This document shows, piece after piece, positions 6,382-26,424 of a stretch of DNA of 39,434 nucleotides (position 1 is its first letter; the number at the start of each line of letters is the position of its first letter). Below the pieces are notes generated by a model. That model did no database searches, was not told the origin of the DNA, and saw nothing but the letters and a program-made list of their open reading frames with translations. The stretch is taken from contig JANQER010000241.1 of assembly GCA_028278255.1 (NCBI GenBank), forward strand, positions 1-39,434, given 5' to 3'. The position numbers were made by a program, and so were the translations under genes. This stretch comes from Elusimicrobiota bacterium (GTDB lineage Bacteria > Elusimicrobiota > Elusimicrobia > FEN-1173).

Positions 6382-6672
6382 ATGAACGCTGCTATTTACC
6401 AGCTCAAAGCCTCTCTCAGCGAATATTTGGCCCATGTCAAACACGGGGAAGAACTCATTATCACAGAACGAGGCAAACCAGTGGCTGTTATCAGCCCTCT
6501 CAAAAGGGAGGCATCACACACAACCGCGCATCTCATGGAACTTGAACGCGCCGGGCTCATAAAAACGGCTTCTTCACCTCTCACATCAGAATTCTGGCAC
6601 CTGACCCGGCCAAAAGATTTGTCCGATAAAGCCCAAAAATATCTCATGGATGAAAGGAGCGAAGACCGGTGA
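6382..6672 (+). CDS. type II antitoxin, Phd/YefM family
   Basis: 96 aa. MNAAIYQLKASLSEYLAHVKHGEELIITERGKPVAVISPL is the typical Phd/YefM N-terminal fold. Its stop overlaps the toxin start (GTGA at 6669-6672). Confidence 0.8.
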   Translation: MNAAIYQLKASLSEYLAHVKHGEELIITERGKPVAVISPLKREASHTTAHLMELERAGLIKTASSPLTSEFWHLTRPKDLSDKAQKYLMDERSEDR

Positions 6673-7112: not shown

Positions 7113-7838
7113 TTAGGCCAAAGAATTGATTTCACAAAGACCACGGGCCTCAATGCGGGGTGAAATGGGAAACGTTTTATCGCCTGGATAAATAATGGTG
7201 AGATGATTCAAAGACAGATCCTCTAACGCTGTGTTCATGGATTTGGTAACTCGGGGTTTATCCGTATACTTGAATTCGTATCCGAAACGTTTTCCATCTT
7301 TCATAATAAGAAGATCCAATTCCGCTTGATTATGGGTCCCCCAGAAAAATGTCTCATCAGGCGTTGCCCTATGTGCGCGAATCACTTCTTCAAGGGCAAA
7401 ACCTTCCCAGGAAGCTCCTATTTTAGGGTGATGCAGCAGATCATCTTCCGAGGTTATCCCAAGAAGATTGTGAAGTATCCCCGAATCACGAATATACATT
7501 TTCGGTGACTTAACCTGCCGTTTGCCGATATTTTCGATCCAGGGACGCAATTCCCGCACCATAAATGTCCCGATAAGAATATCAATGTATTTTCTTACGG
7601 TGGTATGGGCCATCCCCAGAGAACGACCAAGCTCAGCAGTGTTCATGATTTGTCCATGATAATGACAAAGCATCATCCAAAAACGTCTCAACATCTCAGT
7701 CGGCACCTGAATCCCCAGGGATGGGATGTCCCTTTCAAGATAGGTTGAAATATATGATTTTCGCCACACATACCCGGTCTTTTCCGTATCAGCAAGGAAT
7801 GAAAGAGGAAAACCTCCTTCCTCTTCATCCCAAATTTT
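7113..7838 (-). pseudogene. 5'-truncated remnant of an AAA+ ATPase with a DUF4143 domain (COG1373-like); the ATPase half is missing
   Basis: Track ORF 7113..7769 (GTG start) reads WRKSYISTYLERDIP...TAELGRSLGMAHTTVRKYIDIL...VKSPKMYIRDSGILHNLLG. This is the winged-helix/DUF4143 C-terminal half. In the same frame, family-like sequence (WDEEEGGFPLSFLADTEKTGYV) continues upstream to a TGA at 7839-7841 with no start codon. No Walker A region exists, because the giant ORF ends at 7866. Confidence 0.65.
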
Positions 7839-10800: not shown

Positions 10801-13800
10801 GGAGCTTTTATCACATACTCTGAAAGCCCTCTTTCCTCCCTATATCGTGTGATAGCCTCCTTAGATTGAGCACACTCTTTCTGAAATCTGATCCATTTAT
10901 TGATGGCTTGCTCATCATCAAAACCTGGTATCTCAAAATAGAATTCAGAAAAATCAAAATAATGATAGGGACACTCATCCCCATCGGAATGCTCTCCTAA
11001 AAGCTCTTCAGACACCACAGGGAAAATAGAAATCAAATATCCATTTTCATCAAACAACAATTCAAACCCACGTGTTGGTCCTAACTCATTAGACAACACA
11101 TCAATCCCCACTGGTGGATCAACAGGATTTTGACGTTCAGGGACACGAACCCTCATCACAGTCAAGCCGCTTGCCTGATCCACCTCTTCCTCAACCAACT
11201 CTGCCTGATGAAGTTCAAGCGCTTTTAACAACTCATAAGCCGGCATGTTCTTAACCTTTTCCAACAGATCATCAATATTGTGTCCATGGACGTTTCCTTG
11301 TTCCACACACATCAAATAATAAGGGCTGATCCCCCACAAAGAATCTTCTCCAATATTTCTTTCATAGGCAAAATAATCAGTGCTTGTCCCTCCGCCAGTG
11401 GAGATTGTCAAAACAGGCATATTTAACCCAGTCTCTCCTATCTCCCTCTCTTCCTGTTGCAGAGCCACCCTCTTTTCTTCATCCAAATCTAAAGCAGCTT
11501 TGACCAAGGGGGCTGTTTCACCCCCGCTCACAAAAGCAAATAATTCCCCATTGTCAATTCGTCCTTTAATATGATGTGCAATGGCATAGCTGCCCCTATG
11601 ATACGGTTCATCTTCAAAGTTCCCCTGTGGACTGTTCCAATACACAGCCTCCACTTCATCCAAAGCTCTTTTATATTTTTCAATGGTTCTTGGGCCAATA
11701 TCCAAGCCATCCACATCATCCTCTGCCAAAACAACCTCCACACCTCTTATCTTCAAATTTCCAATCCATTTGTTGTATTGCCTTTCCTGAACAATCCCAG
11801 CCAGTTTACCTCCAATAAGAATTTTATCTCCTTTTCGCAGTTTCTCTGAAAAATCTTGAATTAAAGGGATTTTGTCTTCTTTAATCCCGCCAAAAATAGC
11901 AGCCATAGAGCCACGCTTATCATGTTTTATGTATCTCAACATTTTTTGATGAATAAGCAGCTCCCTCTCCATCCAAAATCCCTTGACAGAAGGCATCGAC
12001 GTTTTCAACATCTCCACCACAGTGGTGTCAGACCGATGCGAAACCGGGAATCCATCTAAAACAAACACATCCCCTAATCTTGACACTTGATACGCCAATG
12101 CCTCTCTTTCAGCCGGGTCATCCGACTGCTCACGCCAATCAAATCTCGTATTATCAAGCATGGCCACATCACCCGCGCTCATGCCATGGATGTGATCGAT
12201 GATCTCGTCTGTTACAACAGCGTATCTTTTCTGACGGACTTCTTTGCCCCGCATCAAGTGAACATCTCTGTTCATAAGCTGACTCACTGCATTTCTCACA
12301 TGAGAAATATCATAGGCTTCTTCGACCCCCTCACCTGATGGACGACCAGAATGTGTCACAAGCACCACTTTTCCACCATTATTTAAAATATACTGCATTG
12401 TATTCACAGAGGCATTCAACCGGATATCATCAATTTTCTCTTCTTTTGGATCAAAATGCACATCATTAAAATCAACCCTCACCACAAAAGTTTTCCCCTT
12501 GATCGCATGAGGCGGAACCATATAAAGAGACATGGCATTGCTTTGTCTCAGCTCATCTATAAAACCACGGACCATTTCTGAGTCAAGATTGTCTCCCAAC
12601 CGCTCAATTTCCTCCTCCCATTGATACCCCCATATCCCAAGAAAGAAATCTCTGAATTCAGGAGGGACATTCCCCTGAAAACCAAGACTTTTCACATAAA
12701 GAGACATGGCTTTAAGTGCATTGGGCCAATGGGATTTCATCTCTGGATCCATCAAAATCTGCAAACAATTTCTTATATTGAATGTCAAAATATCTGGTAA
12801 TTGAGAATGATCTTCTCCACCTTTATTCTCATTCATACTTGCCATGGCCATAGACAATGGATATTCAACCTCATAAGGCCGTGCAGATCCTTGACCAGAG
12901 CCAGAGGGCTGATTAATCAGGGCGGGGGCAAGCCCCGCCCCTACGGATATATTCTTAAAATAATCTTTTGGGGAAACCTGATCAATACCGGTTATCCAAT
13001 TCACCACATACTGAATAGGCATATATTTCATCCACCCCATGGACGGCAACAATTCTTGCACAGGAATCCATCTGATTTCAAATTTCATCCCATGAAACAA
13101 ACCAGGCCAAGCACGTAACCCAAATTTTTCAGTTGGGGCCGTTGGACCGAGACGAAGGAGGCCGTGACTTTTTCGACGACAAAAGCGAGCGCAATGCCGT
13201 AAGCATTGGGCGAACTTGTGGAGGACTAAAAAGTCCGGCATCATTTGTCGAATCCAGGCACCCAATTGAAAAGTTTGGGTTAACACTCTTTTCCCTGTTA
13301 TTGATTTCTTTTGAACAGATTTCAGCTTAATCCTGGTAATGGCCCTGGTGCCATCTTTACTGTTTTCAGCTGTGATGGTCGCTCCCATGGCTTCCAAAGC
13401 CATGCGCGCAGCAGGCATGCCCACACCCCCAGAATAAAAAGAATCAGATTCTGTATCCTCAGTATTCACTTGAGCTGCCCGTCTTGCATAATCCACTTGA
13501 AACAATGGCTGAAGCCCCATCCAATCATGCAAAGGAGACAAAAATTTTCGAGGAAATGCTTTTGGGTTTGACACAATTAATTCAACAAATCCATTACCAG
13601 CTTCAACCACAGACAAATCAATGGACTTTAATGCTTTTTCCATACCTTGCTCTTGATTGACTTTAAGTGCATTTTCATAAATCCATTCAAGAGCAGCACA
13701 AAGCAACATGGGATCAGCCAATACTTTTTGATGGCCAATAGTCAAGTTATCAAGCTTAAACTCTCCATTTTTTGTATGAAACTCATGATTATTAAGCAAT

Positions 13801-16800
13801 TTTTTCAAATCTATTTCTTGAATTTGCGCCAATTTTGGATCAAACATGCGCAAAACGATACCCACAATATCAAGACCCCGCTTAATTGTGACAAGATAGC
13901 CTTTCCCTTTTTGGATGTTCTGCATTTTGCCCCATAATTTCTGCAAATATGATTGATAATCCTTTAACCATTTAATCCATATGCGGTACAATTCATCAAC
14001 ATCTTTTTTCCTAAATTGTCCTTTTAACAAAAAGCTCCTGACAAAACCAATCACCTGGGCATGATAAATTCTAAACTGTTCATCAAGACCACGAAATTGT
14101 TTTTCTAATAATTTCTTTTGCTCAGGATCACTTCGAAACACATAACCCAACACAAATGACATATTTGCCATTTGATTCATTAAAGCAAACCGTCCGCCAT
14201 GCCCTGTGACTGCAACAGAATTAACAATAAGCTGCGCTTTTTCATCATATGACTTTTGAACTGCATACCAAAAATCTCTGGCAAAACGCATGGCCACCAC
14301 AACACCAAAAGACAAAAAAATCAATGGCAATGAATAATGAGACAACACAAACACCTGCAAAATAGCATCAGCAGAAAACAAATCCAACCAATACAAGCCA
14401 AGCATAAAAACAGCATTTAAAACCAATGTCAAAACAAACCGAGACTGCACAAAAGAAGACACATAAAATCGAATTAAAAAACCCCGCTGTTTTTTGCCCA
14501 TCTCCTTTGCAGCACGCAGCAAACGCGCTTTTGCTATGACAAGAATGCCAAACTCACTTAAAATTTCCAGCCAAACCCTTTTCCAATCAAGCACATTTTT
14601 TTTGTACTGCACCAAACACCTCATCAATGTATGGCAAAACAAAAACACTGGCACAGACCACATCAACCCAATCACAAAAGCTGTCCCAGGATCAAACCCA
14701 TATGACATGAATATCACAGGCAACCCAATCAACCCACCCACACGAAACACAGCTTCTTCCCAAACCCCCAACAACAAATAATAAATCCCTCTTCCTTGCC
14801 ATGTTTTAAATCTTTTCATAGGCATAACAAAAGGCTCTAAAATATCAGCTGCAGCTGACCTGGCACCATGGCCATAAACAGATCCAAACACATTCACAAT
14901 AAATTGATTTTGAAAAATAAATGATTGAATCATTTCTAGCCAATAACTTAAACTCTCAACCAAAGCAAATCTGAATAAAGAAGACTTAAACAACACCAAC
15001 ACATAATCCTGGCCATTGACTGTGATGTCTGCTGTATGAATGTCATGCTCAAAACCCAATTTTTCCAACTGATGCTCAGCCATGGACAATTTTTCTTTTG
15101 TCATAAGCGCCAAATGGCATCTGGTTTTGCCCAATTTGTATCGAAAAACACTCAAAAACCCATTGTCTGTGATTTTTTGCTTAATCTCCATTTTAAATGA
15201 TTGTTCAATATCCAAAACCTCTGTCAAAGCCTTATCCCCAGCTTCAAGTTCAGACATATCTGTGTTTTTTAAAGCTGATTCAAATGCTGGCACAAAAAAA
15301 CGGTTCAATGATTGAAAAACCTGGCCTCGCATGGCTTTGATTTGAGACACATCCTGCACCATCACACGTTCAGCAGCCAAAAAAATCTTTTCTCCAGCCA
15401 ACATTTTCTCCAATGGAATCGGATCTCTGGCAAACACATTTAAATAATCATGGTTTTTGGGCACAGCTGTGATTTGAGGCGTGACCACCATATAAGAAGC
15501 ATTTTTTTGATGTAAAAGTTCTGTTATCCCTTTTGTGTGAAAGCCACCAGCCACTAAAACAGAAATAACAGGCAATTGATCCGTTGTCATCGGCAATGGC
15601 TGCTTCCCTAAGGCCACTGCACGGGCTGTCCCTACACCTGTCTCTTTGCCCTTTGCTCTTTGCTTGTTGAGCAAATTATCAACCAATGATTTGTTCCGCT
15701 TAATGGCCAATGCGCAAAATTGCTCAAAAGGCTTCAACAAGTTGCGGGGCAGGTCTTGGTCTATGGTCTTTGGGTTCTTGCCGCCAGGTATGATCCCAGT
15801 TTGTCGGATGGGACTATCGTCTTTGGTCTGTTGCTTATATTCTTCCCAATCCTTTGGGGTCATTTGATTGTGAATCAATTTTTCCAGCAAATGCACATAC
15901 CGGGTGGCTGTGACCAATTTTTTCTGTTCAGGTGTCACAGCCAAGGATTGTGCCACTGCTTTTTCCAATTGGGACAATTCTTCTAACAATTGATTGGGAT
16001 TCATTTTTTCTGACAATTTGACATAGTCAATATAAGCATTGAATTGAGCCAGAGATTTTAAGTCCATGCCCTGTTTTTGGCAAAGCCGGCGCAATAAATC
16101 ATAATATGCGCCATAAGCCATGCGGCCTGTTTTATAATCCATGCTTTGCTGAACAAGATGATTCAATTGATCAGATGATAATTTGGCACACAGCTTTTTA
16201 ATCAGTGCATGCCGCTGTTTTTCCACAACACCAAAATCAAGACTGTCTTCCCTGTCCAATGCCTGAATCAAGAGACAACTGTTTTTGAATTTTTGATTTT
16301 TGATTTGTGCTTTTTGATTGAGAAGCAAATACTTCACATATTGACCCAAGGCCTCTTCATGATTCTGATAAGCAGTGGCTTTCTTCTCATACTGTTTAAG
16401 TTCAGGAGAATAAACTTTTTGTTTTTGAGCCATAAGACTGCTTTTAAGATCTGACACAAGGGCTTGGACTTTGGTTTTGTTTTTAAGTGAGTCTTTGAAC
16501 GCCTGAATATTGGTATGATAGGTGGACAGGTCTTCAATTCCCCAAAGTTCAACAAGAGACTGATTGTCAATCGTCAGTGCAGAATATTCTGGTCCGCCAA
16601 TGTATCCTTCTTTTAAAAAATAATCAGCCAACCCTTTTGTGATATCATCATCAGAAAAATCCCTATACGCGTCCACAGCAAAAGCCCCGCTGGCGCCTTC
16701 AAGACCGATCAAAATGGATTTTTGATTTTTGATTTGCTGGAGTTCAAGCTCTCCCGTCTTTGATCTTTGGTCTTCGGCCTTTGGCCTTCGCTCTGTGGAC

Positions 16801-17291
16801 TTTGGACTTTGGTCTTTGGTCTTCGGTCTTCGGTCTTCGGTCTGACTGATATTGTCAATTATTTTTGCAATATTGCGTTGCGCTTCCTCAATTCCATGGG
16901 CATCCTGAATATGAACCACAAAAGGCGCATTAGGATCTGCTGACACATGTATTTCCCGAACAGAACCATAGACAGAAACAAGGCTGGCCAATCTATTGCC
17001 AACAGTATGAGCAGGGGACAATGAAGGAACCGAACTGCGGCTATTGATTGGGAAAGTTTGATGGGATGCCTTAGTGGACAGCTGTTGAATGGGTTGAACA
17101 GGGGAACTGGACAACAAAGCCAATTGAGCCTTTAAATGATTTTGCCGTTGGCCTCTCTGATCAAGCGCTTGCCTGCGTTCTTTCCAAAAACCGATTTCAG
17201 CAGAATACACGCCAATGACATTGGTGAGCACCAACACCACAGCCAAAAAAACACTCAATACTGATTTTGTCAATGTGCTAATAGTTATCAT
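7866..17291 (-). CDS. giant multidomain membrane protein (3141 aa): signal anchor, large ectodomain, CPBP-type membrane protease motifs, degenerate GHKL ATPase, phosphoglycerate kinase domain, SAM-dependent methyltransferase domain, HisKA/HATPase_c histidine kinase, unassigned C-terminus
   Basis: One stop-free frame. Motifs, N to C:
- hydrophobic N-terminus, aa 1-30
- EEAVFR (nt 14742-14759) and FLFCH within a polytopic block
- YENALK (nt 13662-13679) plus GGVGMPAARMALEAMG (nt 13383-13430)
- PGK motifs from RVDFN to STGGG (nt 11361-12533)
- VLVVGPGTGID (nt 10497-10529) and SNSPFF (nt 10287-10304)
- H-box NAHDLTSPMS (His codon 9852-9854), N-box LANIIQNAQ, G1 SDNAQGI, G2 RGLGLHIA
The ATG at 17291 has no obvious Shine-Dalgarno sequence. 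A TATAAT (reverse strand, 17299-17304) lies 7 nt upstream. Confidence 0.85.
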   Translation of the reverse strand: MITISTLTKSVLSVFLAVVLVLTNVIGVYSAEIGFWKERRQALDQRGQRQNHLKAQLALLSSSPVQPIQQLSTKASHQTFPINSRSSVPSLSPAHTVGNRLASLVSVYGSVREIHVSADPNAPFVVHIQDAHGIEEAQRNIAKIIDNISQTEDRRPKTKDQSPKSTERRPKAEDQRSKTGELELQQIKNQKSILIGLEGASGAFAVDAYRDFSDDDITKGLADYFLKEGYIGGPEYSALTIDNQSLVELWGIEDLSTYHTNIQAFKDSLKNKTKVQALVSDLKSSLMAQKQKVYSPELKQYEKKATAYQNHEEALGQYVKYLLLNQKAQIKNQKFKNSCLLIQALDREDSLDFGVVEKQRHALIKKLCAKLSSDQLNHLVQQSMDYKTGRMAYGAYYDLLRRLCQKQGMDLKSLAQFNAYIDYVKLSEKMNPNQLLEELSQLEKAVAQSLAVTPEQKKLVTATRYVHLLEKLIHNQMTPKDWEEYKQQTKDDSPIRQTGIIPGGKNPKTIDQDLPRNLLKPFEQFCALAIKRNKSLVDNLLNKQRAKGKETGVGTARAVALGKQPLPMTTDQLPVISVLVAGGFHTKGITELLHQKNASYMVVTPQITAVPKNHDYLNVFARDPIPLEKMLAGEKIFLAAERVMVQDVSQIKAMRGQVFQSLNRFFVPAFESALKNTDMSELEAGDKALTEVLDIEQSFKMEIKQKITDNGFLSVFRYKLGKTRCHLALMTKEKLSMAEHQLEKLGFEHDIHTADITVNGQDYVLVLFKSSLFRFALVESLSYWLEMIQSFIFQNQFIVNVFGSVYGHGARSAAADILEPFVMPMKRFKTWQGRGIYYLLLGVWEEAVFRVGGLIGLPVIFMSYGFDPGTAFVIGLMWSVPVFLFCHTLMRCLVQYKKNVLDWKRVWLEILSEFGILVIAKARLLRAAKEMGKKQRGFLIRFYVSSFVQSRFVLTLVLNAVFMLGLYWLDLFSADAILQVFVLSHYSLPLIFLSFGVVVAMRFARDFWYAVQKSYDEKAQLIVNSVAVTGHGGRFALMNQMANMSFVLGYVFRSDPEQKKLLEKQFRGLDEQFRIYHAQVIGFVRSFLLKGQFRKKDVDELYRIWIKWLKDYQSYLQKLWGKMQNIQKGKGYLVTIKRGLDIVGIVLRMFDPKLAQIQEIDLKKLLNNHEFHTKNGEFKLDNLTIGHQKVLADPMLLCAALEWIYENALKVNQEQGMEKALKSIDLSVVEAGNGFVELIVSNPKAFPRKFLSPLHDWMGLQPLFQVDYARRAAQVNTEDTESDSFYSGGVGMPAARMALEAMGATITAENSKDGTRAITRIKLKSVQKKSITGKRVLTQTFQLGAWIRQMMPDFLVLHKFAQCLRHCARFCRRKSHGLLRLGPTAPTEKFGLRAWPGLFHGMKFEIRWIPVQELLPSMGWMKYMPIQYVVNWITGIDQVSPKDYFKNISVGAGLAPALINQPSGSGQGSARPYEVEYPLSMAMASMNENKGGEDHSQLPDILTFNIRNCLQILMDPEMKSHWPNALKAMSLYVKSLGFQGNVPPEFRDFFLGIWGYQWEEEIERLGDNLDSEMVRGFIDELRQSNAMSLYMVPPHAIKGKTFVVRVDFNDVHFDPKEEKIDDIRLNASVNTMQYILNNGGKVVLVTHSGRPSGEGVEEAYDISHVRNAVSQLMNRDVHLMRGKEVRQKRYAVVTDEIIDHIHGMSAGDVAMLDNTRFDWREQSDDPAEREALAYQVSRLGDVFVLDGFPVSHRSDTTVVEMLKTSMPSVKGFWMERELLIHQKMLRYIKHDKRGSMAAIFGGIKEDKIPLIQDFSEKLRKGDKILIGGKLAGIVQERQYNKWIGNLKIRGVEVVLAEDDVDGLDIGPRTIEKYKRALDEVEAVYWNSPQGNFEDEPYHRGSYAIAHHIKGRIDNGELFAFVSGGETAPLVKAALDLDEEKRVALQQEEREIGETGLNMPVLTISTGGGTSTDYFAYERNIGEDSLWGISPYYLMCVEQGNVHGHNIDDLLEKVKNMPAYELLKALELHQAELVEEEVDQASGLTVMRVRVPERQNPVDPPVGIDVLSNELGPTRGFELLFDENGYLISIFPVVSEELLGEHSDGDECPYHYFDFSEFYFEIPGFDDEQAINKWIRFQKECAQSKEAITRYREERGLSEYVIKAPEPENKPFVFAEFVGVEQGALRLVEFGLEDRGFGQALEKIYDSQSENPRVIFPVFPTVYSPAAGDNYLADRIYMLTVYSVGQALGEDKEGGVLVVGPGTGIDAWVAWLGTNSNRDIYAVGINPFEVANMRFFAKQAGFRVTAKVGNNVLNEKREPVFGDKKIALVCSNSPFFETLTEEERKERIGKLKRLTGATDLESLSDEALLTCFEVIRKEYVRQGVMRPKKLAGFHDGDRGSFISELAQGVSQLPGIEEGFLVLWGEESNGVVEEVLTFNGLDIIETFPDPEYSHNLVYLVGVQDMNGRTLKEAKLAAAANAHDLTSPMSVLGAQLKFLSDDNALVQADRNWMSGFYDLSKNLKTFLEQVQNGKTIADVNKANKQIKNILSKIDEVYLFEMAREKLTKIYQELSVDDFSAKEDALKIVFVQYVLRDYFAAFRDEEELVDLDHLFDVIFAGHAHEVVNRENTVIHYGGGHQILKTNKLALFRALANIIQNAQYFIAEMKDDITMRGLLEKQGLQISEREVELQDISGKMRIETEIVNQGKDMEIRISDNAQGIPLKIRDSVFERGVSSKLDTGGRNLSRGLGLHIAKKCIERCNGTISFKTRHVDEYPQDHGTTFVITLPLGKSSLSEEEWIQYVLDQTVLPQVKKLSDETEKLNPRIEVDIDPVQVKNQVKLRLFLGESEEAEDVSWQNVEGLLDTLTLPSPIKGEGQFQATEGLVRGMNFQNLEELREVLGVLQSRIRSNVKVIEERAKECDALIRVLGLNVGLMSGLGQKREMVFYIGVLQRTLDIVEDLSPQKILALMAQGFEFGFGLAAHEKAKIHSINEIKSDQPCVVHVPGNLLNIERTEALTVAKTLLKKNGEAPVVVVTDDDKLSVSEALGSESQRLIVMSNNEVKCSVDKVIERLVSDQKYQSMDFERKGVQLQVLSPVIMNWTVTPQYSQAAVLLQIIGNMVIKIATDEFDRLRKLSEMIGSNA
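12920..12941. repeat. GC-rich palindrome GGGCGGGGCAAGCCCCGCCCC read through in frame inside the giant ORF
   Basis: It is near-identical to 37708-37728 inside the glcD-glcE-like ORF. Both are translated as AGLAPA. Confidence 0.8.
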
Positions 17292-17445: not shown

Positions 17446-17587
17446 TTATATGAATAAAAGATGTGCACTTTTTTATGCTGACACCTTACATTTTTTCATC
17501 TGCCCAATGGATACCTGAATTCCTTGAATCTTAGCCCGAATTTCTCTGACAAAAGGGACTGTTGCGAAAGTCAAATAGGACTAACTT

Positions 17588-17621
17588 GTCTCCCTTCTCC
17601 CGCTTGCGGGAGAAGGGAGAC
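17588..17621. other. perfect 15-bp stem / 4-nt loop hairpin, flanked by a second outer inverted repeat
   Basis: The hairpin is GTCTCCCTTCTCCCG-CTTG-CGGGAGAAGGGAGAC, followed by GACTGATTTT. The outer arms GTTGCGAAA..AATAGG (17561-17579) and CCTATTTCGCAAC (17672-17684) can also pair. Confidence 0.6.
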
Positions 17622-17819
17622 GACTGATTTTCCCTCTTATATCTCTTAAGTAGCCCTAAAAATTCTTTAAGCCTATTTCGCAACTGATATAAGACATTAC
17701 AATATTGATACTTTTTTATAAATTTTATATTGTGTGTCATATAATTTCTTTTGTGCTTGTTTCTTGGTTATTGGTTATTATTTGGTTATTGTTTCTTGGA
17801 ACTTGTAATTTTTAAGACT

Positions 17820-18758
17820 ATGAACACACGCAATGTGATTATTATTGGATCAGGTCCGGCAGGATTTACAGCTGCTATTTATGCGGCGCGGGCCAATTTG
17901 CAGCCTGTGGTGATTGCCGGATTCATGAAGGGCGGTCAGTCAGGCGGGCAGCTCATGACCACCACCGATGTGGGCAACTTTCCCGGATTTCCCGAAGGCA
18001 TAGAAGGGCCTGCGCTCATGAACCGCATCAGAAAACAGGCGCTCAACTATGACACGGAAGTTTTTGACAAAGATGTTGTCAAAGTTGACTTTTCCGAGAC
18101 GCCTTTTAAAATCTGGACTGAAGACGAAGAAATGTCCGCCAAAACCGTGATCATCTGCACCGGGGCTTCAGCCAAGAGATTCCACACGGAAGCTGAAAAT
18201 CGTTTTTGGAACAAAGGCATCTCAGCCTGCGCCACATGTGACGGGGCCCTGCCTCTCTTTCGCAACAAACCCATTGTGGTGATTGGCGGCGGGGACACAG
18301 CCATGGAAGAAGCCCTTTATTTGTCGCGGTTCGGTTCCCAGATTATCCTGGTGCACCGCAGAGAACAATTCCGCGCGTCAAACATCATGCTGCAGCATGT
18401 GAAAAACAACAAAAAAATCATATTGAAAACCCCTTATGTCTTGGAAGACACAATGGGAAGCCATTTTCTGGAAAGAGTCAAGCTTAAAAATGTCAGCACA
18501 AAACAAAAAGAAGAGGTCCCGGCCAATGGGCTTTTTCTGGCCATAGGGCATCAACCCAATACAGACATTTTTAAAGGCCAGATTGATCTGGAAGAAACAG
18601 ATTATATCAAAACCGACGGCCACACCCGCACCAATGTGCCTGGTGTTTTTGCTGCAGGCGACTGCGTGGACCATGTGTACCGCCAGGCCATAACAGCCGC
18701 TGGCATGGGCTGCATGGCCGCCCTCCAAGCCCAAAAACACCTACAAAACAACAACTAG
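17820..18758 (+). CDS. trxB: thioredoxin-disulfide reductase
   Basis: The conserved start MNTRNVIIIGSGPAGFTAAIYAARA is at ATG 17820. The track ORF starts at TTG 17751 and reads through a GGTTATT repeat. Present are the redox-active CATCDG, the NADPH motif VIGGGDTAMEEA and GVFAAGD. Confidence 0.93.
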   Translation: MNTRNVIIIGSGPAGFTAAIYAARANLQPVVIAGFMKGGQSGGQLMTTTDVGNFPGFPEGIEGPALMNRIRKQALNYDTEVFDKDVVKVDFSETPFKIWTEDEEMSAKTVIICTGASAKRFHTEAENRFWNKGISACATCDGALPLFRNKPIVVIGGGDTAMEEALYLSRFGSQIILVHRREQFRASNIMLQHVKNNKKIILKTPYVLEDTMGSHFLERVKLKNVSTKQKEEVPANGLFLAIGHQPNTDIFKGQIDLEETDYIKTDGHTRTNVPGVFAAGDCVDHVYRQAITAAGMGCMAALQAQKHLQNNN

Positions 18759-19076: not shown

Positions 19077-21221
19077 GTGAAGAGGTATGCTGTGGATAAT
19101 ATAACAGCCACAAACTTATTCTTAATGGCCGGGCTTATAGACAAGGATGAGGTCAAAACCGTTCTTGAGGAAAACAGCAAGAAATCCGGTGAAAAGATTG
19201 AAGACACCATGGTCCGCCTGCACTTTGCTTCGGAGCAGGAGCTGACCAAAGTCTATGCCAAGCATTTGGGGGTGCCTTATATTGAGCTGAGCTGCATCCG
19301 GGCTGACCAAAAAGCCATTTCCTCAGTGCCCATGACGCTGGCCAACCAGCACAATGTTCTTCCTGTATGGATAGAAGACAACACCCTATTTCTTGCCATG
19401 GAAAACCCTGAAAACAAAACAGCCATTGAATCAGTCCAATCCACCACAGGCATGAATGTCAAACCCCATATGTGCGCGCCAATTGATATTGCCTCTGCCA
19501 TTGATGAATATTATCATGTGGATGAATCCATTAACGAATACATCAAAAATGTGTCTTACCGGGAAAGCATTGAACTGCTCTCAGGCAGTGTGTCTTCAGC
19601 GCCGGCCTCAAAGCAAGACGAAGCTGTTCAGCATTTCCTCAATGCGGTTCTGTTCCAAAGCCTCTCCAATCACGCCGAATCAGTGATGCTTCAACCCAGA
19701 CAAAAAGACCTATTGATTCTCAATCAAATTGACGGCATATCCTATGAAGCCATGCATGCGCCCAAATGGATCATCAAGCCATTCGTGTCTTATATCAAAG
19801 CACAATGCCGCATGCCCGCTTCTGAAACCAGTGAACAGCAGCAAGGCCAAATAAAAATCCGCGTGGAAGAAAATGTGTTTGAATGCAAAATAATTGTTCA
19901 ATCCGGTGTTTACGGCAGCCATGTGTACATACGGTTTATTAATCCACATAAACGTTTTTTGGCCCTGGATGAACTGGGCTTCAGTCCTGACCTTGTGTCT
20001 GATATCAAACACACAATACACAGCGCCAAAGGAACTCTTTTGCTCTGCGGCACCTCAGGCAGCGGCAGGACAACCACCCTATACAGTCTGCTGGCAGACG
20101 CTCTCCGGCACAAACAAATCGTGACTTTGGAAAATCCGGTTGAACACCCTCTGGCAGGCGCTAAACAAGTATGTGCGAATGAATCCAGTGGAATATCACG
20201 CTCCCTGTATCTGGAAACAATTTTCAGCGTGCAGCAGGACATTGTTTATGCCGGAGACATCCTTGACAGAAAAATCGCTGAAAATATACTGCAGGCCTCA
20301 TTAAAAAACCGTTTGGTCATGGGATCCATGCACGCAAAAAGTTCCATTGCGGGCATCCGGCGCCTGTTGGACATGCCGGTCCCGCCTGACCTGGCCGCGA
20401 CTGGCCTGTGCGGCGTCCTGACGCAAAAGCTTGTTCGCACCCTCTGCGATCATTGCCGGACCCCGCATGAGCCCAGCGAAGAGGATGCTCAAAAAATTCA
20501 GGCCCTCATTGGCCGGGAACCGGATTTTGTTTTGTACAAAGGCAAGGGGTGCGTCAAATGCCGCCGCACCGGATACCAAGGACGAATTGGGATATTCGAA
20601 TTTTTGAAAATCACTGATCCTGTACGCGCCATCATCAGACAAAACCCGGACAGCGCCCAATTAAAAGAAGCTGTTGAAAAAAACACCATGAAAACGCTTC
20701 TGAATGATGCCATGGACAAACTTCAGCAGGGCATCACCACGTGGGAAGAAATCAAGCGGGTGATTCTCACTGACTGCGATGATCTCCCTGCTGCTTCAGG
20801 GGATGACTCACTTGCCGCTTCATTGCCGGACACAAATGACTTCAAAGGATTCAAAATTCACATATGCGATGATGAACCGGCTGTGGCGCATCTCTTTGAA
20901 AAACATTTGAAGCATCAAGGTTTTTGCACAAATGTCTCTTACAACGGCAAACAAGCCCTTGAAAAGATCGCTGTTGAAAAGCCTCATCTGCTGGTCATTG
21001 ATGTCATGATGCCGGAACTGAACGGACTGGAAGTGATCAAAACACTGAAGCAAGACGTGACCACTGCTTTTATTCCCATTATGATCATTTCCAATAAAAA
21101 CACAGCCCGGGACAAGCTGAAAGGATACGAATCAGGCACAGACGATTATCTGCCAAAACCGTTTTTACCGCAAGAACTGCTGATCAGGGTAAAATCTTTG
21201 CTCAAAAGAGTATATGTATGA
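19077..21221 (+). CDS. GspE/PilB-family secretion/pilus ATPase homologue with degenerate catalytic motifs, fused to a C-terminal response-regulator receiver domain
   Basis: 714 aa with a GTG start.
- T2SSE_N-like N-terminus: LFLMAGLIDKDEV...FASEQELTKVYAKHLGVPYIEL
- Walker A reads GTSGSGRTTT (Arg codon AGG 20067-20069 where Lys is expected)
- Asp box LENPVE, Walker B region YAGDILD, His box GSMHAKS
- tetra-Cys CDHC...CVKC is retained
- REC domain about nt 20850-21215: ICDDEP, LLVIDVMMPELNG, IISNK, LPKPF. Confidence 0.85.
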   Translation: MKRYAVDNITATNLFLMAGLIDKDEVKTVLEENSKKSGEKIEDTMVRLHFASEQELTKVYAKHLGVPYIELSCIRADQKAISSVPMTLANQHNVLPVWIEDNTLFLAMENPENKTAIESVQSTTGMNVKPHMCAPIDIASAIDEYYHVDESINEYIKNVSYRESIELLSGSVSSAPASKQDEAVQHFLNAVLFQSLSNHAESVMLQPRQKDLLILNQIDGISYEAMHAPKWIIKPFVSYIKAQCRMPASETSEQQQGQIKIRVEENVFECKIIVQSGVYGSHVYIRFINPHKRFLALDELGFSPDLVSDIKHTIHSAKGTLLLCGTSGSGRTTTLYSLLADALRHKQIVTLENPVEHPLAGAKQVCANESSGISRSLYLETIFSVQQDIVYAGDILDRKIAENILQASLKNRLVMGSMHAKSSIAGIRRLLDMPVPPDLAATGLCGVLTQKLVRTLCDHCRTPHEPSEEDAQKIQALIGREPDFVLYKGKGCVKCRRTGYQGRIGIFEFLKITDPVRAIIRQNPDSAQLKEAVEKNTMKTLLNDAMDKLQQGITTWEEIKRVILTDCDDLPAASGDDSLAASLPDTNDFKGFKIHICDDEPAVAHLFEKHLKHQGFCTNVSYNGKQALEKIAVEKPHLLVIDVMMPELNGLEVIKTLKQDVTTAFIPIMIISNKNTARDKLKGYESGTDDYLPKPFLPQELLIRVKSLLKRVYV

Positions 21222-21311
21222 TGAGCAAAGGCCAATCCCATCCGGCGAGCAGGGACCATACCTCGCGGCATGGAGAGCATAGAGCATGGGAATTGACTGT
21301 TGGAGGATTTT

Positions 21312-23648
21312 ATGGGCGACAACCTTAATCTGGCGGAATTGTTTCTGAAAGCCGGGCTCATTGACAAAGATGAGATGCAAATAGTGATTGAGGCCAATAA
21401 AAAGAATCCCGGAGAAAAAATCAGCGATACACTTGTGCGTCTGAAATTCGCCACTGAACAAGATGTGACCAAAGTGATTTCCCAGCAGTTCAACATTCCC
21501 TTTATAGACCTGTCCGGCACAGACATTGATCCCAAAGCCGTTCATTTTATCCCGCTGAGCCTGGCCAGCCAATCCAATATTTTCCCTGTCAGAGAAGAAG
21601 ACAACATCCTGCTCCTGGCCATGAAAGACCCGCATGACATGGAAGCCATCAATATGGCAGGTTTTTCCTCAGGCCTGACCATCAAGCCATTTTTGGCAGC
21701 TGCCACACAAATCGAAAAAATGATTGTCCGCTATTATCATGTGGAAGAATCCATTGCGGATTACATGAAATCCATTGATACACCTCAGGGGATTGAACTC
21801 ATCACAGACAGCCGCATGACAGAAATAGATTTGAAGGACTTAAGGAAAAAAAGCGAAGCTGTGCCCATCATTCAAATGGTCAATGCCCTGATTCATCAGG
21901 GCATCACCCAGAATGCCAGTGATATTCATATAGAACCGCAGGAAAAAATTATTTTTGTGCGCAACCGTATTGACGGCCTTCTTCACAAATCCCTGCAAAT
22001 CCCCAAATGGGTCCAACCGGCTCTGATTTCCCGCATCAAAATCATGTCCGGCATGGACATCTCTGAAAAACGCGTGCCGCAGGATGGCCGTATAAAAATA
22101 AGGCTGGAAGAAAAAACCATTGATTTGCGCATTTCCTGCCTGCCAACACAGCACGGGGAAAAGATCGTGATCCGTGTTTTGGACACGAACAGAAAATTAC
22201 TCACTATCGGAGAATTGGGCTTTCAGCCGGAACTGGCCGGACAAGTGGCCAATGTCATTAACCAGCCGCAAGGCATTCTGTTGGTCTGCGGACCCACAGG
22301 CAGCGGCAAAACCACAACATTGTACGGACTTTTGACTGAAATCGCCAAGAAGAGCCATAATATTGTCACTTTGGAAGATCCCATTGAATATGTTTTGTCA
22401 GGCGTTAACCAAGTCCAAATGAATGAAAAAGCCGGTCTGACTTTTGCCAAATCTCTCAGATCTGTGCTGCGACAGGACCCGAATGTGATCTTTGTGGGAG
22501 AAATTAGGGACAGTGAAACAGCAGAGATTGCTCTGAGGGCCTCCATGACAGGCCATTTGGTTTTCAGCACGCTTCATACAAATGACGCCGCCTCCACCAT
22601 CAGCCGGATATTGGATCTTAAAATTGAACCCTATTTGGTGGCCTCTTCTGTCACAGGCATCCTGTCTCAGCGGCTGGTCAGGACCATATGCCCGCACTGC
22701 CGGGAAGAACACAACCCAGACCGCAAAATCATAAAAAAAATAGAGGACAAGCTGGGAGAAGAAATATACTTTCTTCTCTATCACGGCAAAGGCTGCGACA
22801 AATGCCAAAACACCGGCTATCAGGGACGCATGGGCATTCATGAGCTTCTCCTCATCACCCCTGAAATCCGTGAATCCATCCGCAACCAAACCGCTTCTGA
22901 AGGCAAGATTCGTCAATTGGCCAAGCAAGAAGGCATGAAAACAATCCTGGATGACGCGCTTGAAAAAGTCAAACAGGGCATGACCACCATCGAAGAAGTG
23001 GAAAGAGTTGTTATCTTTGCCGAGGAAAAGGATTCCTCTTCTTACCCCTTCATATGCCCGCAATGCAAAAAAAATATTGAAAAAGAGTGGAAAACATGCC
23101 CTTATTGCAGTTATATTTTATTGGGGGGCAGCGGAGCGGAACAAACAAAAGGCCAAGGCGTGCCTGACAGTACGGCAAGGGCGCTGATCAACAAAAATGC
23201 GCGTGTTCTTCCAATGCCTGAGTCCATCAGCATGCCCTTGCCGCCTCACAATGGGAACAATGATTTCAGCGGTTACAGAATACTGCTGGCAGATGATGAT
23301 GAAGAAATCGGCCGAAGCCTGGTGATGCATTTGCTTAAAAATAAATTTGCCGTGAGCATAGCCACCAATGGCCGGGAAGCGTTGGACAATATTGCCAAAG
23401 AAAAGCCGCATCTGCTGCTCACGGACCTGGTGATGCCGAAAATGGATGGATATGAACTGATTCAAAAAGTACGGCAAAACAAAACCACGGCCTCGCTGCC
23501 CATTATTGTCTTGTCTCAAAAAGGAGCCGTGGAGGACAGGCTGAAAGGATTTGAGCTCGGATCAGATGATTATCTGCCCAAGCCGTTTGCACCGGATGAA
23601 ATGTTGTTTAGAATTAAAGCGGTTCTCAAACGCACATACAGCATATAA
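21312..23648 (+). CDS. GspE/PilB-family secretion/pilus ATPase (canonical motifs) with an internal zinc ribbon and a C-terminal response-regulator receiver domain
   Basis: The track ORF starts at TTG 21300; ATG 21312 lies 5 nt after GGAGG.
- T2SSE_N-like N-terminus
- Walker A GPTGSGKTTT (22290-22319), TLEDPIEY, FVGEIRDSETA, VFSTLHTNDA
- CPHC...CDKC tetra-Cys, plus an extra CPQC..CPYC ribbon (about 23050-23120)
- REC domain about 23274-23640: LLADDDEE, LLLTDLVMPKMDG, VLSQK, LPKPF. Confidence 0.9.
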   Translation: MGDNLNLAELFLKAGLIDKDEMQIVIEANKKNPGEKISDTLVRLKFATEQDVTKVISQQFNIPFIDLSGTDIDPKAVHFIPLSLASQSNIFPVREEDNILLLAMKDPHDMEAINMAGFSSGLTIKPFLAAATQIEKMIVRYYHVEESIADYMKSIDTPQGIELITDSRMTEIDLKDLRKKSEAVPIIQMVNALIHQGITQNASDIHIEPQEKIIFVRNRIDGLLHKSLQIPKWVQPALISRIKIMSGMDISEKRVPQDGRIKIRLEEKTIDLRISCLPTQHGEKIVIRVLDTNRKLLTIGELGFQPELAGQVANVINQPQGILLVCGPTGSGKTTTLYGLLTEIAKKSHNIVTLEDPIEYVLSGVNQVQMNEKAGLTFAKSLRSVLRQDPNVIFVGEIRDSETAEIALRASMTGHLVFSTLHTNDAASTISRILDLKIEPYLVASSVTGILSQRLVRTICPHCREEHNPDRKIIKKIEDKLGEEIYFLLYHGKGCDKCQNTGYQGRMGIHELLLITPEIRESIRNQTASEGKIRQLAKQEGMKTILDDALEKVKQGMTTIEEVERVVIFAEEKDSSSYPFICPQCKKNIEKEWKTCPYCSYILLGGSGAEQTKGQGVPDSTARALINKNARVLPMPESISMPLPPHNGNNDFSGYRILLADDDEEIGRSLVMHLLKNKFAVSIATNGREALDNIAKEKPHLLLTDLVMPKMDGYELIQKVRQNKTTASLPIIVLSQKGAVEDRLKGFELGSDDYLPKPFAPDEMLFRIKAVLKRTYSI

Positions 23649-23738
23649 CTTATTTATTATTTATTTTTTTATACAATTTATTGAAAAAAAGTTACAATAT
23701 AACCGCATTTCAAGAATCAACAATAACGAGGACTTAAT

Positions 23739-24110
23739 ATGGCACAAAAAATACTCATAGTGGATGATTCAAGATTAACCAGAGCGATTATCAAAAATGC
23801 TCTGTCAGAAGCAGGATTTGAAGTGGTTGGCGAGGCGGAAAACGGCCGTGTGGCTGTTGACATGTTCAACCAATTAAAACCTGACCTGATCACCATGGAT
23901 CTGATTATGCCGGACGTGGACGGCATGCAAGCCACAAAAGAAATCCTGGGGAAAGACCCGCAAGCCAGGATTCTTGTGGTCACCTCACTGGGACAAAAAC
24001 TTCTGGAAGAAGATGCCATGAAAACCGGCGCACGCGGCATGATTGCCAAACCTTTTCAGCCACAAGAACTCTTAAGCGCTGTCAAAGAAGTTCTTGACAA
24101 AACATCCTAA
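23739..24110 (+). CDS. cheY: single-domain CheY-like response regulator
   Basis: 123 aa with ILIVDDSRL, LITMDLIMPDVDG, VVTSLG and IAKPF. GAGGA lies upstream of the ATG. Confidence 0.85.
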   Translation: MAQKILIVDDSRLTRAIIKNALSEAGFEVVGEAENGRVAVDMFNQLKPDLITMDLIMPDVDGMQATKEILGKDPQARILVVTSLGQKLLEEDAMKTGARGMIAKPFQPQELLSAVKEVLDKTS

Positions 24111-24214
24111 CCCGGGTATACCGGGAATGTAAAATTCACTGGTGTGTATTAAAATGCAAAATAAAGATTTGAAATCTGCAAACAGCTTGTTTGCCGTCTA
24201 AACAAGGATTCACT

Positions 24215-24844
24215 ATGGAAACAGTTAAATTGCCCCAAGAACAAATAGAAGATCTTATGGAAGTCGGAAATATCGGCGCTGGCAATGCTGCTTCAGGCTT
24301 GTCAGATCTCATCCATCACCGCTGTGTCATCGACATCCCCATGGTATCGTATGTCAACACGGAAGGCATAAAAAAAGTGCTTGAAATGGAAGACTCGTTT
24401 GTTGTGACCCTTCACATCAAAATCATGGGCGACATTCCAGCGCTCATGTTTGTGGTCATGAAAAGAATTTATGCGCAAACCATCGTCAAATACATGACCC
24501 GTGAAGGCATTGAGGCCGTCGGCCGGAACTTCAATTTCACCGCGCAATTTGCCCTCAAACAGCTCGGCGAACTTTTAACAAAATCATTTTTTGACGCCAT
24601 CAATCAATTGCTCATGACCAAAGCCAAATACGCCATGCCGGAAATCATCATGGACAATTGGACATCAGCCGTGGATGCCATTATTAAGCTGGTCGGCAAT
24701 TCCAACAAAGAGGTGGAACATTTGTTCATTCATTCCTCCTTTTTTGACCCGGAAAAAACTTTTGAAGGGAAATTTGTCTATGTGCTGAACATTGAATCAC
24801 AAAAAATCATTCTGAACAGACTTAGAATGCTCCTAAACAGGTGA
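24215..24844 (+). CDS. CheC/CheX/FliY-family CheY-P phosphatase-like protein
   Basis: The track ORF starts at TTG 24191; ATG 24215 gives METVKLPQEQIEDLMEVGNIGAGNAASGLS. The first active-site motif E-x2-N-x22-P is intact (EVGN...22 residues...P). The second pseudo-repeat reads E-x2-T-x19-P (GELLTKSF...MP). Confidence 0.75.
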   Translation: METVKLPQEQIEDLMEVGNIGAGNAASGLSDLIHHRCVIDIPMVSYVNTEGIKKVLEMEDSFVVTLHIKIMGDIPALMFVVMKRIYAQTIVKYMTREGIEAVGRNFNFTAQFALKQLGELLTKSFFDAINQLLMTKAKYAMPEIIMDNWTSAVDAIIKLVGNSNKEVEHLFIHSSFFDPEKTFEGKFVYVLNIESQKIILNRLRMLLNR

Positions 24845-24850
24845 GGAAAA

Positions 24851-25216
24851 ATGAGCTCAAAAATATTGGTTGTTGATGATTCAAGACTGGCGCGGACTCT
24901 GATCAAAAATGCGCTGAAAGCCTCCGGATTCGAAGTGGTGGGAGAAGCCCAAAACGGGCGGGAAGCCATTGAACTTTTCTCTCAGCTTAAGCCGGATCTG
25001 GTCACCATGGACATGATGATGCCTGAAGTGGACGGCATGGAAGCCACCAAGGAAATCATTAAAACAGATGCGCAAGCCAAAGTGATTATGATCACTTCAG
25101 TCAACCAGCAGCTGATGAATGAAGATTTTCAAAGTGTTGGCGCGCGCGCCACTTTGGCCAAACCTTTTGAACCACAAGACCTTGTCAATGCCATCAATGG
25201 CATACTCAGTTCTTAA
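24851..25216 (+). CDS. cheY: single-domain CheY-like response regulator
   Basis: 121 aa with ILVVDDSRL, LVTMDMMMPEVDG, MITSVN and LAKPF. It starts 6 nt after the cheC-like stop, behind GAGGAAAAATG. Confidence 0.85.
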   Translation: MSSKILVVDDSRLARTLIKNALKASGFEVVGEAQNGREAIELFSQLKPDLVTMDMMMPEVDGMEATKEIIKTDAQAKVIMITSVNQQLMNEDFQSVGARATLAKPFEPQDLVNAINGILSS

Positions 25217-25306
25217 GATACGACAGGATTCTACATGTAGCACATGTAGAAAATGTAGAATTTAGAACTGGCATGACAAAATAATTTCTAGAAACCTTCA
25301 GAATTT

Positions 25307-26362
25307 ATGATACCGAAAATACTCATTGTGGATGATGCCCGGCTTACCCGGTTGATCATCAAAAACATACTCATCCAGGCCGGCTTCAATATTGTGGGTG
25401 AAGCTGTCAACGGACGTGAGGCCATTGACATGACCCGTCAATTGAAGCCTGATGTGGTCACGGTTGATCTGACCATGCCGGAAATGAATGGCATGGAATC
25501 CATCCAAGGCATTCTGGAAGCCCATGCCAAAGCCAGAATTTTGATTGTCACAGCGCTTGGCGGACAAAAACTCCTTCAAGAAGACGCGAAAAAAGCCGGT
25601 GCCTTGGGCATGATCAACAAACCCTTCAAACCAACTGAACTGCTGGGCGCCATTGACTCTCTCATGAAATATGAAACACCAAAACCAGCCGAATCCCTTA
25701 TTGCACCCAGCAGTGAGATCCCGTCAGCTTTCATCAAATCTCAGCCCATCCCCTTGAGCGAAGAACAAATAGAAAACTTAATGGAAGTGGCCAATATTGG
25801 CTCCGGCAATGCAGCCTCGCAGATTTCAGAACTCATCCATGAACGGTGCCTCATCAGTCTGCCGCAAGTGGCTTATTCGGATTTTAAAACCATCGAAGAA
25901 ATCATGAACCTCAATGACAGTTATGTGGCAGCGCTTCATATCAAAATCATGGAAGATATTCCGGCTGACATATTGGTGGCCATTAAAAGGTCTTACGCGC
26001 ATTTCATTGTGAAACATCTCACAAAAGGAAGCGTTGACACTTCTGTCTCTGATCTCACATTCACCGCTCAATTCACTCTCAAGCAAATGGGAGAGCTCAT
26101 GACACGCGCTTTTTCTAAAGCCATCAATGAATTCCTCTTAACTGACTCTACTTACAAACTCCCGGAAATCATATTGGACACTTGGACAACCACAACGGAT
26201 TTTATTTATAAAAAGCTCACCCGCCCGGATGAGCTGCAAATGATTGTACACTGCGCGTTCTCAAACCCTGAAAAAAATTATGACGGGAAATTCGTGTACA
26301 TCCTCAATCAATACGCCCAAAAAACCATCCTTGATAGAATCGAACTATTGTTGGACAGATAA
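25307..26362 (+). CDS. CheY receiver fused to a CheC-like phosphatase domain
   Basis: 351 aa.
- N-terminal REC: ILIVDDARL, VVTVDLTMPEMNG, IVTALG, INKPF
- about 30-aa linker
- CheC-like domain LSEEQIENLMEVANIGSGNAASQISELIHERCLISLP: E-x2-N-x22-P intact, second repeat E-x2-T-x19-P as in 24215..24844. Confidence 0.8.
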   Translation: MIPKILIVDDARLTRLIIKNILIQAGFNIVGEAVNGREAIDMTRQLKPDVVTVDLTMPEMNGMESIQGILEAHAKARILIVTALGGQKLLQEDAKKAGALGMINKPFKPTELLGAIDSLMKYETPKPAESLIAPSSEIPSAFIKSQPIPLSEEQIENLMEVANIGSGNAASQISELIHERCLISLPQVAYSDFKTIEEIMNLNDSYVAALHIKIMEDIPADILVAIKRSYAHFIVKHLTKGSVDTSVSDLTFTAQFTLKQMGELMTRAFSKAINEFLLTDSTYKLPEIILDTWTTTTDFIYKKLTRPDELQMIVHCAFSNPEKNYDGKFVYILNQYAQKTILDRIELLLDR

Positions 26363-26424
26363 AAAAGTCAAATTCTAAACTCTAAATCCTAAATAATAAA
26401 AACAAAAATGATATAATTTTGTTT

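Follow-up and report, generated by a model that had tools for sequence, protein, structure and literature searches.

A conserved array of CheY-like receivers, a single-site CheC-like protein and a receiver-CheC fusion beside receiver-bearing PilB-type ATPase genes in Elusimicrobia-like bacteria

The 39,434-nt contig JANQER010000241.1 of an Elusimicrobiota bacterium (GenBank assembly GCA_028278255.1), analysed over its whole length and referred to here as the window, carries a run of six consecutive genes on the + strand (19077–26362; Table 1): two for PilB/GspE-family proteins with a C-terminal receiver (REC) domain (PilB1 and PilB2), then CheY1, a free CheC-like protein, CheY2 and a REC-CheC fusion. 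With a probability of about 0.5, we read the array as a conserved two-component output and signal-termination module on a REC-controlled PilB/GspE-type ATPase, in which a phosphatase would accelerate a phosphate sink. All components are of known types (CheY-like receivers, a CheC-type phosphatase, a PilB-type ATPase) and this is not a new kind of system, although the arrangement was found in no description; the new elements are a distinct CheC subfamily that is single-sited but retains the CheC fold, a fusion of substrate and phosphatase that has been maintained, and the conserved position of the array next to an ATPase with its own receiver in Elusimicrobia-like bacteria. The gene order cheY, cheC-like, cheY, REC-CheC had been described, with the same coordinates, in an initial annotation made from the sequence, and all of the peptide strings listed there, including the motifs shared by the CheY-like domains, are present. 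The absence of che core genes nearby was also correctly described: Pfam detects no CheA, CheW, CheR, CheB, CheD or MCP domain in substantial open reading frames (ORFs) of the window. Related loci and related proteins in the search collections are referred to below by L- and P-numbers, respectively.

Both CheC-like ORFs exceed the gathering score (22) of Pfam CheC (PF04509), the profile that the initial annotation had named as a check, narrowly (26.2 bits for the free protein, 22.8 for the fusion), and only the first repeat scores in each. NCBIfam CheC_Thtogales aligns end to end with the free protein (77.2 bits, E 1.5e-21) and with aa 150–346 of the fusion (66.4 bits, E 3.2e-18), both scores falling short of the NF041093 CheC equivalog cutoff of 250 bits. 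A three-sequence profile matches Thermotoga maritima CheC (1xkr, E 1.6e-18), FliY (4hyn, 4.6e-6) and a haloarchaeal CheC-like protein (3qta, 1.8e-3). In the AlphaFold2 model of the fusion (mean predicted local confidence, pLDDT, 87.1; predicted template-modelling score, pTM, 0.84), Foldseek places the CheC-like domain closest to the same three structures (1xkr, template-modelling score [TM] 0.71, E 6.8e-12; 3qta, TM 0.74–0.76; 4hyn, TM 0.70). Judged by profile matches and predicted fold, the CheC-like ORFs are true CheC-family proteins. Neither reaches the gathering score of CheX (PF13690; 14.7 and 15.6 bits against 27), and there is no FliMN_C match: both proteins end with the CheC-like domain and so have no C-terminal FliN/SpoA domain of the FliY type. 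The free and fused domains share 48% identity over 208 aa (BLASTP E 8e-75), in keeping with the paralogy claimed for them.

The consensus of the CheC family is D/S-x3-E-x2-N-x21/22-P, in which Glu touches CheY~P and Asn positions the attacking water (PMC12887009). The first site, E-x2-N-x22-P, is intact in both window proteins, as initially reported (E24/N27/P50 in the free protein, numbered from 24191; E160/N163/P186 in the fusion). The second had been read as E-x2-T-x19-P; this string exists, but lies three residues off, starting at the residue aligned with the catalytic Asn. In the homologous register, aligned with T. maritima CheC and ~40 canonical CheCs, site 2 is Q124-x2-E127-x22-P150 in the free protein and Q260-x2-E263-x22-P286 in the fusion, and in either register both catalytic residues are missing. 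Identification of such sites by motif only is unreliable: besides the misregistered second site, the REC domain of the fusion matches E-x2-N-x22-P by chance (aa 32–58; 25400–25480; EAVNGREAIDMTRQLKPDVVTVDLTMP), and the same is seen in the fused RECs of P0004 and P0013.

The two proteins belong to a small, sharply separated subfamily that resembles CheX in its number of sites and CheC in its fold. When 1.84 billion representatives were searched exhaustively with a profile, 2170 matched, 20 of them at ≥136 bits and the rest at ≤106 bits, and a second search, in a 5.8-billion-cluster collection, gave ~62 clusters at ≥163 bits followed by canonical CheCs at ≤134 bits (a word-index protein search with the fused CheC domain alone returned only itself and one relative, profile and alignment queries being more sensitive). 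Named members come from Elusimicrobia and Acidobacteriota metagenome-assembled genomes (MAGs) and carry the public labels ‘chemotaxis protein CheC’, ‘response regulator’ or ‘hypothetical’. Among 21 subfamily representatives site 1 is kept wherever the N-terminus is intact and site 2 is never E..N (E replaced by Q/R/K/H/N, N by E/D/A/Q), whereas the ~40 canonical CheCs mostly keep the second site (Glu nearly always, Asn in most). Alignment of 17 members (mean column identity 42%) left eight invariant columns, including the three that hold E, N and P in site 1, which argues for retention of single-site catalysis. Such invariance fits retained catalysis better than binding alone, and CheX works with a single site (PMC12887009). 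It is therefore highly unlikely, in our view, that the CheC-like domains are non-catalytic CheY~P-binding adaptors (compare FliM, a non-catalytic CheC relative) that dock CheY-like proteins on the ATPase or sequester them and serve as output or interaction domain in the fusion, even though one of two pseudo-symmetric sites is lost in every member, the Pfam scores are barely above threshold, the D/S of the consensus is not kept and the fused copy has diverged more rapidly than the free copy (33–57% against 63–80% identity between orthologues). In 17/17 aligned members an invariant Cys follows the active-site helix (R-R/K-C, five residues before the conserved Pro; C45 in the free protein, 24323–24325; C181 in the fusion, 25847–25849), at a position where canonical CheCs have Val or Ile; a redox link between this Cys and the conserved upstream trxB would be pure speculation.

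The REC-CheC fusion is genuine and does not result from a frameshift or a misassembly. The source run, a coral metagenome, has an independent Logan assembly that spans 23716–26500 with 0 differences and 0 gaps, and REC-CheC proteins of 325–356 aa make up about nine clusters from unrelated samples (P0001, P0004, P0013, P0014, P0196, P0200–P0203). Among the longer proteins of the 150 best representatives this architecture is found only in the subfamily described here, the others being CheW-CheC-CheC, CheC-FliN (FliY) and CheC-GGDEF-PilZ. The complete four-gene array CheY-CheC-CheY-(REC-CheC) is also present in L005, L008/L009, L094 and L095, with truncated versions in L001, L007 and L096. Within the window CheY1, CheY2 and the fused REC, all of which keep DD/D/T/K, are 47–59% identical to each other, and in a REC alignment and neighbour-joining tree each clusters with its positional counterparts from other loci: CheY1 with orthologues in L001, L003, L005, L007, L008 and L094 (64–85% identity), CheY2 with those in L005, L007 and L008 (55–83%) and the fused REC with a group that includes those of L002, L005 and L008 (55–62%; 55–80% over the group). 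On this tree the REC triplication and the fusion are older than the divergence of the carrier lineages, and the array is ancient and maintained. The initial proposal of local duplication as a recent event thus fails, since the RECs are orthologous across distant relatives and the array recurs in four other loci. In the window, the fused CheC domain is closer to the free one (47% identity) than to its own positional orthologues (33–39%), which could suggest recent duplication or gene conversion, and in a CheC-domain neighbour-joining tree (no support values) the fused CheC of the window falls near free copies and apart from other fused copies. This placement may be due to fast evolution or gene conversion, and orthology was taken from the REC tree and synteny instead. 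That the fusion ORF is an artefact, or the array a very recent duplication peculiar to this contig, deserves practically no credence and is refuted by the exact match of the independent assembly, the REC-CheC clusters elsewhere, the grouping of the fused RECs and the recurring array.

The link to REC-fused PilB-like ATPases, also proposed initially, is conserved at about eight independent loci (the window, L001, L003, L008/L009, L094, L096 and L098). In L008/L009, L094 and L096 the order is trxB, PilB-REC, CheY1, CheC; L096 ends there, while L008/L009 and L094 continue with CheY2 and REC-CheC, followed in L008/L009 by ispG, an AI-2E transporter gene and SpoU, as in the window. In L003, from an Elusimicrobia MAG, PilB-REC, CheY and CheC are followed by a different REC and ispG. 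L098 is more diverged (48% identity) and is flanked by unrelated WD40 genes, yet still has PilB-REC, REC and CheC-like genes in this order; conservation of the order despite unrelated flanks argues for a functional link and not only inherited synteny.

Two REC-fused PilB-like ATPases directly upstream of the array had been noted; both do carry a REC domain, but in the first every catalytic motif is degenerate. In PilB1 (40% identical to PilB2) the Walker A motif is GTSGSGRTT (K>R), the Asp box ENPVE and Walker B GDILD (E>D, R>L), and the His box (NRLVMGSMHAK) and Arg fingers (region SEQQQGQIK) are lost, while its REC is intact (DD/D/S/K). PilB1 is thus a probable pseudo-ATPase with an intact receiver and may be a regulatory subunit. 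It is missing from the complete syntenic loci L008/L009, L094 and L096 and, among the loci examined, is found in this window only. PilB2 has canonical Walker A, Asp box, Walker B and His box motifs and is 61% identical to the L008 PilB. Proteins with the MshEN+T2SSE+REC architecture account for at least 35 of the 120 best clusters, including some from Limnocylindrales and Acidobacteriota MAGs, and none of the PilB-REC genes seen lies inside a pilC/pilMNOPQ cluster. A related-loci search with the C-terminus of PilB2 (zinc ribbon plus REC) was dominated by generic OmpR-type receivers and returned no PilB-REC loci. On a 10.1-Mb contig (L101, 1–11331; ENA ERZ21831104 ctg97553c) at least three genes for REC-fused T2SSE ATPases (755 aa, 354 aa without MshEN, and 776 aa) lie within 11 kb, with single receivers and very large PAS kinases between them; here, receiver-controlled PilB-like ATPases have expanded in number without being part of any pilus operon.

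Table 1 Genes and domains of the array and its neighbours in the window.
Feature	Position	Strand	Basis
Giant ORF (3141 aa) with histidine-kinase core, divergent from the cluster	7866..17291	-	Pfam PGK and HATPase_c; sequence inspection
trxB, thioredoxin reductase, upstream neighbour of the cluster	17751..18758	+	Pfam Pyr_redox_2; context only
PilB1, PilB/GspE-family paralogue, MshEN + T2SSE + C-terminal REC	19077..21221	+	714 aa; Pfam T2SSE 216 bits, MshEN, Response_reg
PilB2, PilB/GspE-family ATPase, MshEN + T2SSE + zinc ribbon + C-terminal REC	21300..23648	+	782 aa; Pfam T2SSE 440 bits, MshEN, Zn_ribbon_3, Response_reg
CheY1, single-domain CheY-like receiver	23739..24110	+	123 aa; Pfam Response_reg 103.8 bits
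Free CheC-like protein	24215..24844 (or 24191..24844)	+	209 aa from ATG 24215; 217 aa from TTG 24191
CheY2, second single-domain CheY-like receiver	24851..25216	+	121 aa; Pfam Response_reg 104.9 bits
REC-CheC fusion	25307..26362	+	351 aa; Pfam Response_reg aa 5-116 and CheC aa 158-188
Fusion, CheY-like REC domain (aa 1-120; phospho-acceptor D54)	25307..25666	+	Pfam Response_reg 87.6 bits
Fusion, Pro/Ser-rich linker (aa 121-150)	25667..25756	+	AlphaFold2 pLDDT 59-68, no secondary structure over aa 121-151
Fusion, CheC-like domain (aa 151-351)	25757..26362	+	Pfam CheC 22.8 bits (gathering score 22)

The receivers of the run fall into two classes. Those of CheY1, CheY2 and the fusion score 88–105 bits with Response_reg and have aligned DD/D54/T/K residues; CheY_Halo is the best NCBIfam match of CheY1 (114.9 bits), but all CheY-type RECs remain below its equivalog cutoff (86–115 against 200 bits) and are classed as CheY-like, not as CheY orthologues. 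The predicted structure of the fused REC best matches T. maritima CheY (4iga, TM 0.95, 44% identity). PilB receivers are OmpR/PhoB-like by best NCBIfam match and only 24–30% identical to the CheY-like receivers. Every subfamily CheC gene with available upstream sequence, except a stand-alone copy in L004, is directly preceded by or fused to a receiver, and wherever compared this receiver is CheY-like, including where PilB is absent. Since the CheC genes pair with receivers even without PilB, and the PilB RECs are of a different class, the likely substrates of the CheC-like phosphatases are the adjacent CheY-like RECs, not those of PilB. Of the initial description of the array as a dedicated phosphate-flux controller for the PilB motor, the PilB-REC link is supported by its conservation, but the PilB RECs are not likely to be substrates of the phosphatases. 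In the CheY1 orthologue of L003 (1186–1557 of JACQPF010000108.1) Tyr replaces the phospho-acceptor Asp (TMYLVMP), reflecting either a non-phosphorylatable receiver or a sequencing error in this MAG.

As a two-component output and termination module, the array would receive phosphate from a kinase encoded elsewhere, whose targets would be the CheY-like receivers and, probably, that of PilB; candidates include an orthodox or hybrid histidine kinase, as found beside PilB-REC in other phyla, the histidine-kinase core of the giant ORF and a kinase of the CheA/ChpA type encoded at another place in the genome. Hydrolysis of CheY~P by the single-site CheC-like proteins would use a water positioned by Glu and Asn, as in CheC and CheX, and the CheY-like proteins would thereby act as phosphate sinks with rapid turnover and/or signal briefly to the ATPase. 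How strongly and for how long PilB-REC is phosphorylated would depend on this, and with it the activity of the pilus or secretion ATPase. The fusion could hold enzyme and substrate together on one tether, as a sink that drains itself, or be a phosphatase that is gated by phosphorylation and gives feedback; it is reasonable to regard it, as initially suggested, as a self-resetting receiver or phosphate sink, and the pTM of its model, maintained across a low-confidence linker, hints at a defined REC:CheC interface. A more elaborate version, which we consider quite unlikely, is a CheA-independent, chemotaxis-like timing circuit on the motor ATPase, in which an orthodox kinase would phosphorylate the PilB receiver, the pseudo-ATPase would co-assemble as a regulatory subunit, the two CheY-like sinks and the free single-site CheC would set decay, and the fusion would dephosphorylate itself in cis as a timer or feedback element. 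If the module reading is true, the array offers a tractable minimal system for the shaping of response-regulator signalling by phosphatase and sink at a pilus or secretion motor with no receptor array nearby, and a natural example of a tethered receiver-phosphatase pair.

Several observations weigh against the module reading. In both window proteins the D/S of the CheC consensus (position -4) is E, with D or N at -3, so that the match is to the E-x2-N-x22-P core only. PilB2 lies below the equivalog cutoffs of both NCBIfam PilB (592.7 bits; cutoff 675.65) and GspE (585.3; cutoff 630.25), and pilC, pilMNOPQ, pilT and pilin genes are absent from the window and from all related loci. PilB-REC and REC+CheC are separable, and their adjacency could in part be inherited synteny within one lineage: in the MAG of L003 the fusion lies in another part of the genome (L002), loci of the Acidobacteriota type contain just a REC and a CheC-like gene, next to addAB and without PilB, and PilB-REC occurs without CheC in three distant contexts, standing alone in one and surrounded in the other two by PAS kinases, single receivers and either c-di-GMP enzymes or HD-domain response regulators. 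No kinase can be assigned. The contig has a single kinase domain, which lies in the giant ORF (HATPase_c, aa 2644–2788; H-box-like motif AHDLTSPMS near aa 2478), making the histidine-kinase core of this ORF a candidate phosphodonor for the array, but this core is unrelated to the kinases flanking L008, L004 (where a hybrid kinase adjoins the free CheC-like gene) and L094. BLAST of the L008- and L004-adjacent kinases against the giant ORF gave generic HATPase_c similarity only, and thus there appears to be no conserved cognate kinase.

Two further points of this kind concern CheA: most free-living Elusimicrobiota encode CheA, CheW and MCPs (one of them ChpA) as well as type IV pilus genes, which symbionts lack (bioRxiv 10.1101/2022.07.08.499144), and a distant subfamily member, P0016 (L012), closes a complete CheA-CheW-MCP-REC-CheB-CheR-(CheX-REC) operon. 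Because CheA, CheW and MCPs are common in free-living Elusimicrobiota, the lack of cheA on a 39-kb contig does not show that the organism has no CheA, and the initial statement that the array is not part of a chemotaxis pathway cannot be concluded from a contig of this size when one relative lies inside a che operon. The CheY-like and CheC-like genes might instead be accessories of a CheA-based, possibly type IV pilus/Chp-like, pathway with its core elsewhere in the genome, the PilB-REC adjacency being lineage synteny or the output end of that pathway. The receivers are CheY-type by best structure match and best NCBIfam match, and the REC of the L012 CheX-REC fusion is among the closest outside relatives of the array RECs (42–49% identity), as is an Acidobacteriota-type REC of L010 (42–48%). 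Still, we hold a CheA-based pathway to be rather unlikely: no che core gene is found within ~10 kb in the contigs of L008 (34 kb), L094 (18 kb), L098 (16 kb) and L010/L097, as in the window, the PilB-REC, CheY, CheC order survives the complete change of flanks in L098, there is no CheD partner, and the subfamily is sharply separated from canonical che-operon CheCs.

Compared with T. maritima CheC, the subfamily has the same fold, a similar length (~205 aa) and an identical register of the first E-x2-N-x22-P, and differs in loss of the second site in every member (Q/R/K/H...E/D/A for E...N), in the invariant Cys after helix 1, in the lack of a cheD gene or che operon at the loci examined (the window and ~10 kb in L008, L094, L098, L010 and L097) and in fusion of one copy to a receiver. 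CheX (Borrelia burgdorferi 3HZH, T. maritima 1XKO) likewise has one functional E-x2-N site per chain and is a stand-alone CheY-P phosphatase that acts without CheD, but the window proteins have the pseudo-duplicated topology and length of CheC and fall below the CheX Pfam threshold. In Myxococcus xanthus, DifD and DifG provide a CheY-like phosphate sink and a CheC-like phosphatase in a type IV pilus-linked exopolysaccharide pathway (PMC4671073). Here too, a CheC homologue accompanies a single-domain CheY-like protein, and the pair is thought to drain kinase phosphate rather than carry the main output; however, the Dif cluster includes CheA, CheW and MCP components (DifE/C/A) and has no REC-CheC fusion or REC-fused PilB. 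In Synechocystis PixG~P binds PilB1 and PixH is a sink (PMC11181946), and in Xanthomonas the tandem-REC protein DrdR acts on PilB/PilT (PMC13507683). As in these systems and with Pseudomonas aeruginosa PilG/PilH, multiple, probably antagonistic receivers, one of them a sink, would control a PilB-type ATPase in the window; the other systems differ in that they lack a dedicated phosphatase, depend on CheA-type kinases and have a PilB without a receiver of its own.

Covalent joining of CheC or CheX to another signalling domain is also seen in CheA-CheC/CheX fusions of Leptospirae (PMC10542144), in CheW-CheC-CheC, FliY and CheC-GGDEF-PilZ, and in L012. At 9106–9996 of the L012 contig (GCA_029262435.1, JAJCZK010000171.1) a gene for a 296-aa CheX-REC protein directly precedes that of the distant CheC-like subfamily member. 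It is an independent phosphatase-receiver fusion, with domain order opposite to the REC-linker-CheC order of the window, and shows that such fusions arose at least once more. No paper describing REC-CheC fusions or PilB-REC with CheC was found.

The six-gene cluster is likely to be co-transcribed, as all genes lie on the same strand with intergenic gaps of 6–104 nt (CheY2 starts 6 nt past the stop codon of the CheC-like gene), no terminator-like hairpin lies between them on the + strand and called genes in relatives have 4-nt overlaps (in L008 and L095 at all junctions from CheC-like to the fusion, in L005 and L094 for the CheY2/fusion pair only); no RNA run contained the locus. For the free CheC-like protein, the ATG start at 24215 is that of the public gene call (P0153). 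The neighbouring genes are of housekeeping type: 2-oxoacid:ferredoxin oxidoreductase, trxB, ispG, AI-2E transporter, SpoU methylase, rhomboid and polA, with trxB in the same position upstream of PilB-REC/CheY/CheC in L008, L094 and L096. The giant ORF also has an N-terminal signal/transmembrane region, a transmembrane block at ~aa 830–1010, a phosphoglycerate kinase (PGK) domain (aa 1597–1833, 200 bits), unusual within a giant membrane kinase, and a SAM-methyltransferase-like GxGxG at ~aa 2255. The divergent intergenic region between this ORF and trxB contains a hairpin with a 17-bp GC-rich stem (TTGTCTCCCTTCTCCCGC...GCGGGAGAAGGGAGACGA; 17586–17623, + strand) that is not followed by a T-run. 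Between the oxidoreductase genes and the giant ORF, a PIN-domain ORF (6669–7100, + strand) adjoins a DUF4143 ORF (7113–7769, - strand), a pair that may be a toxin-antitoxin system or a mobile remnant.

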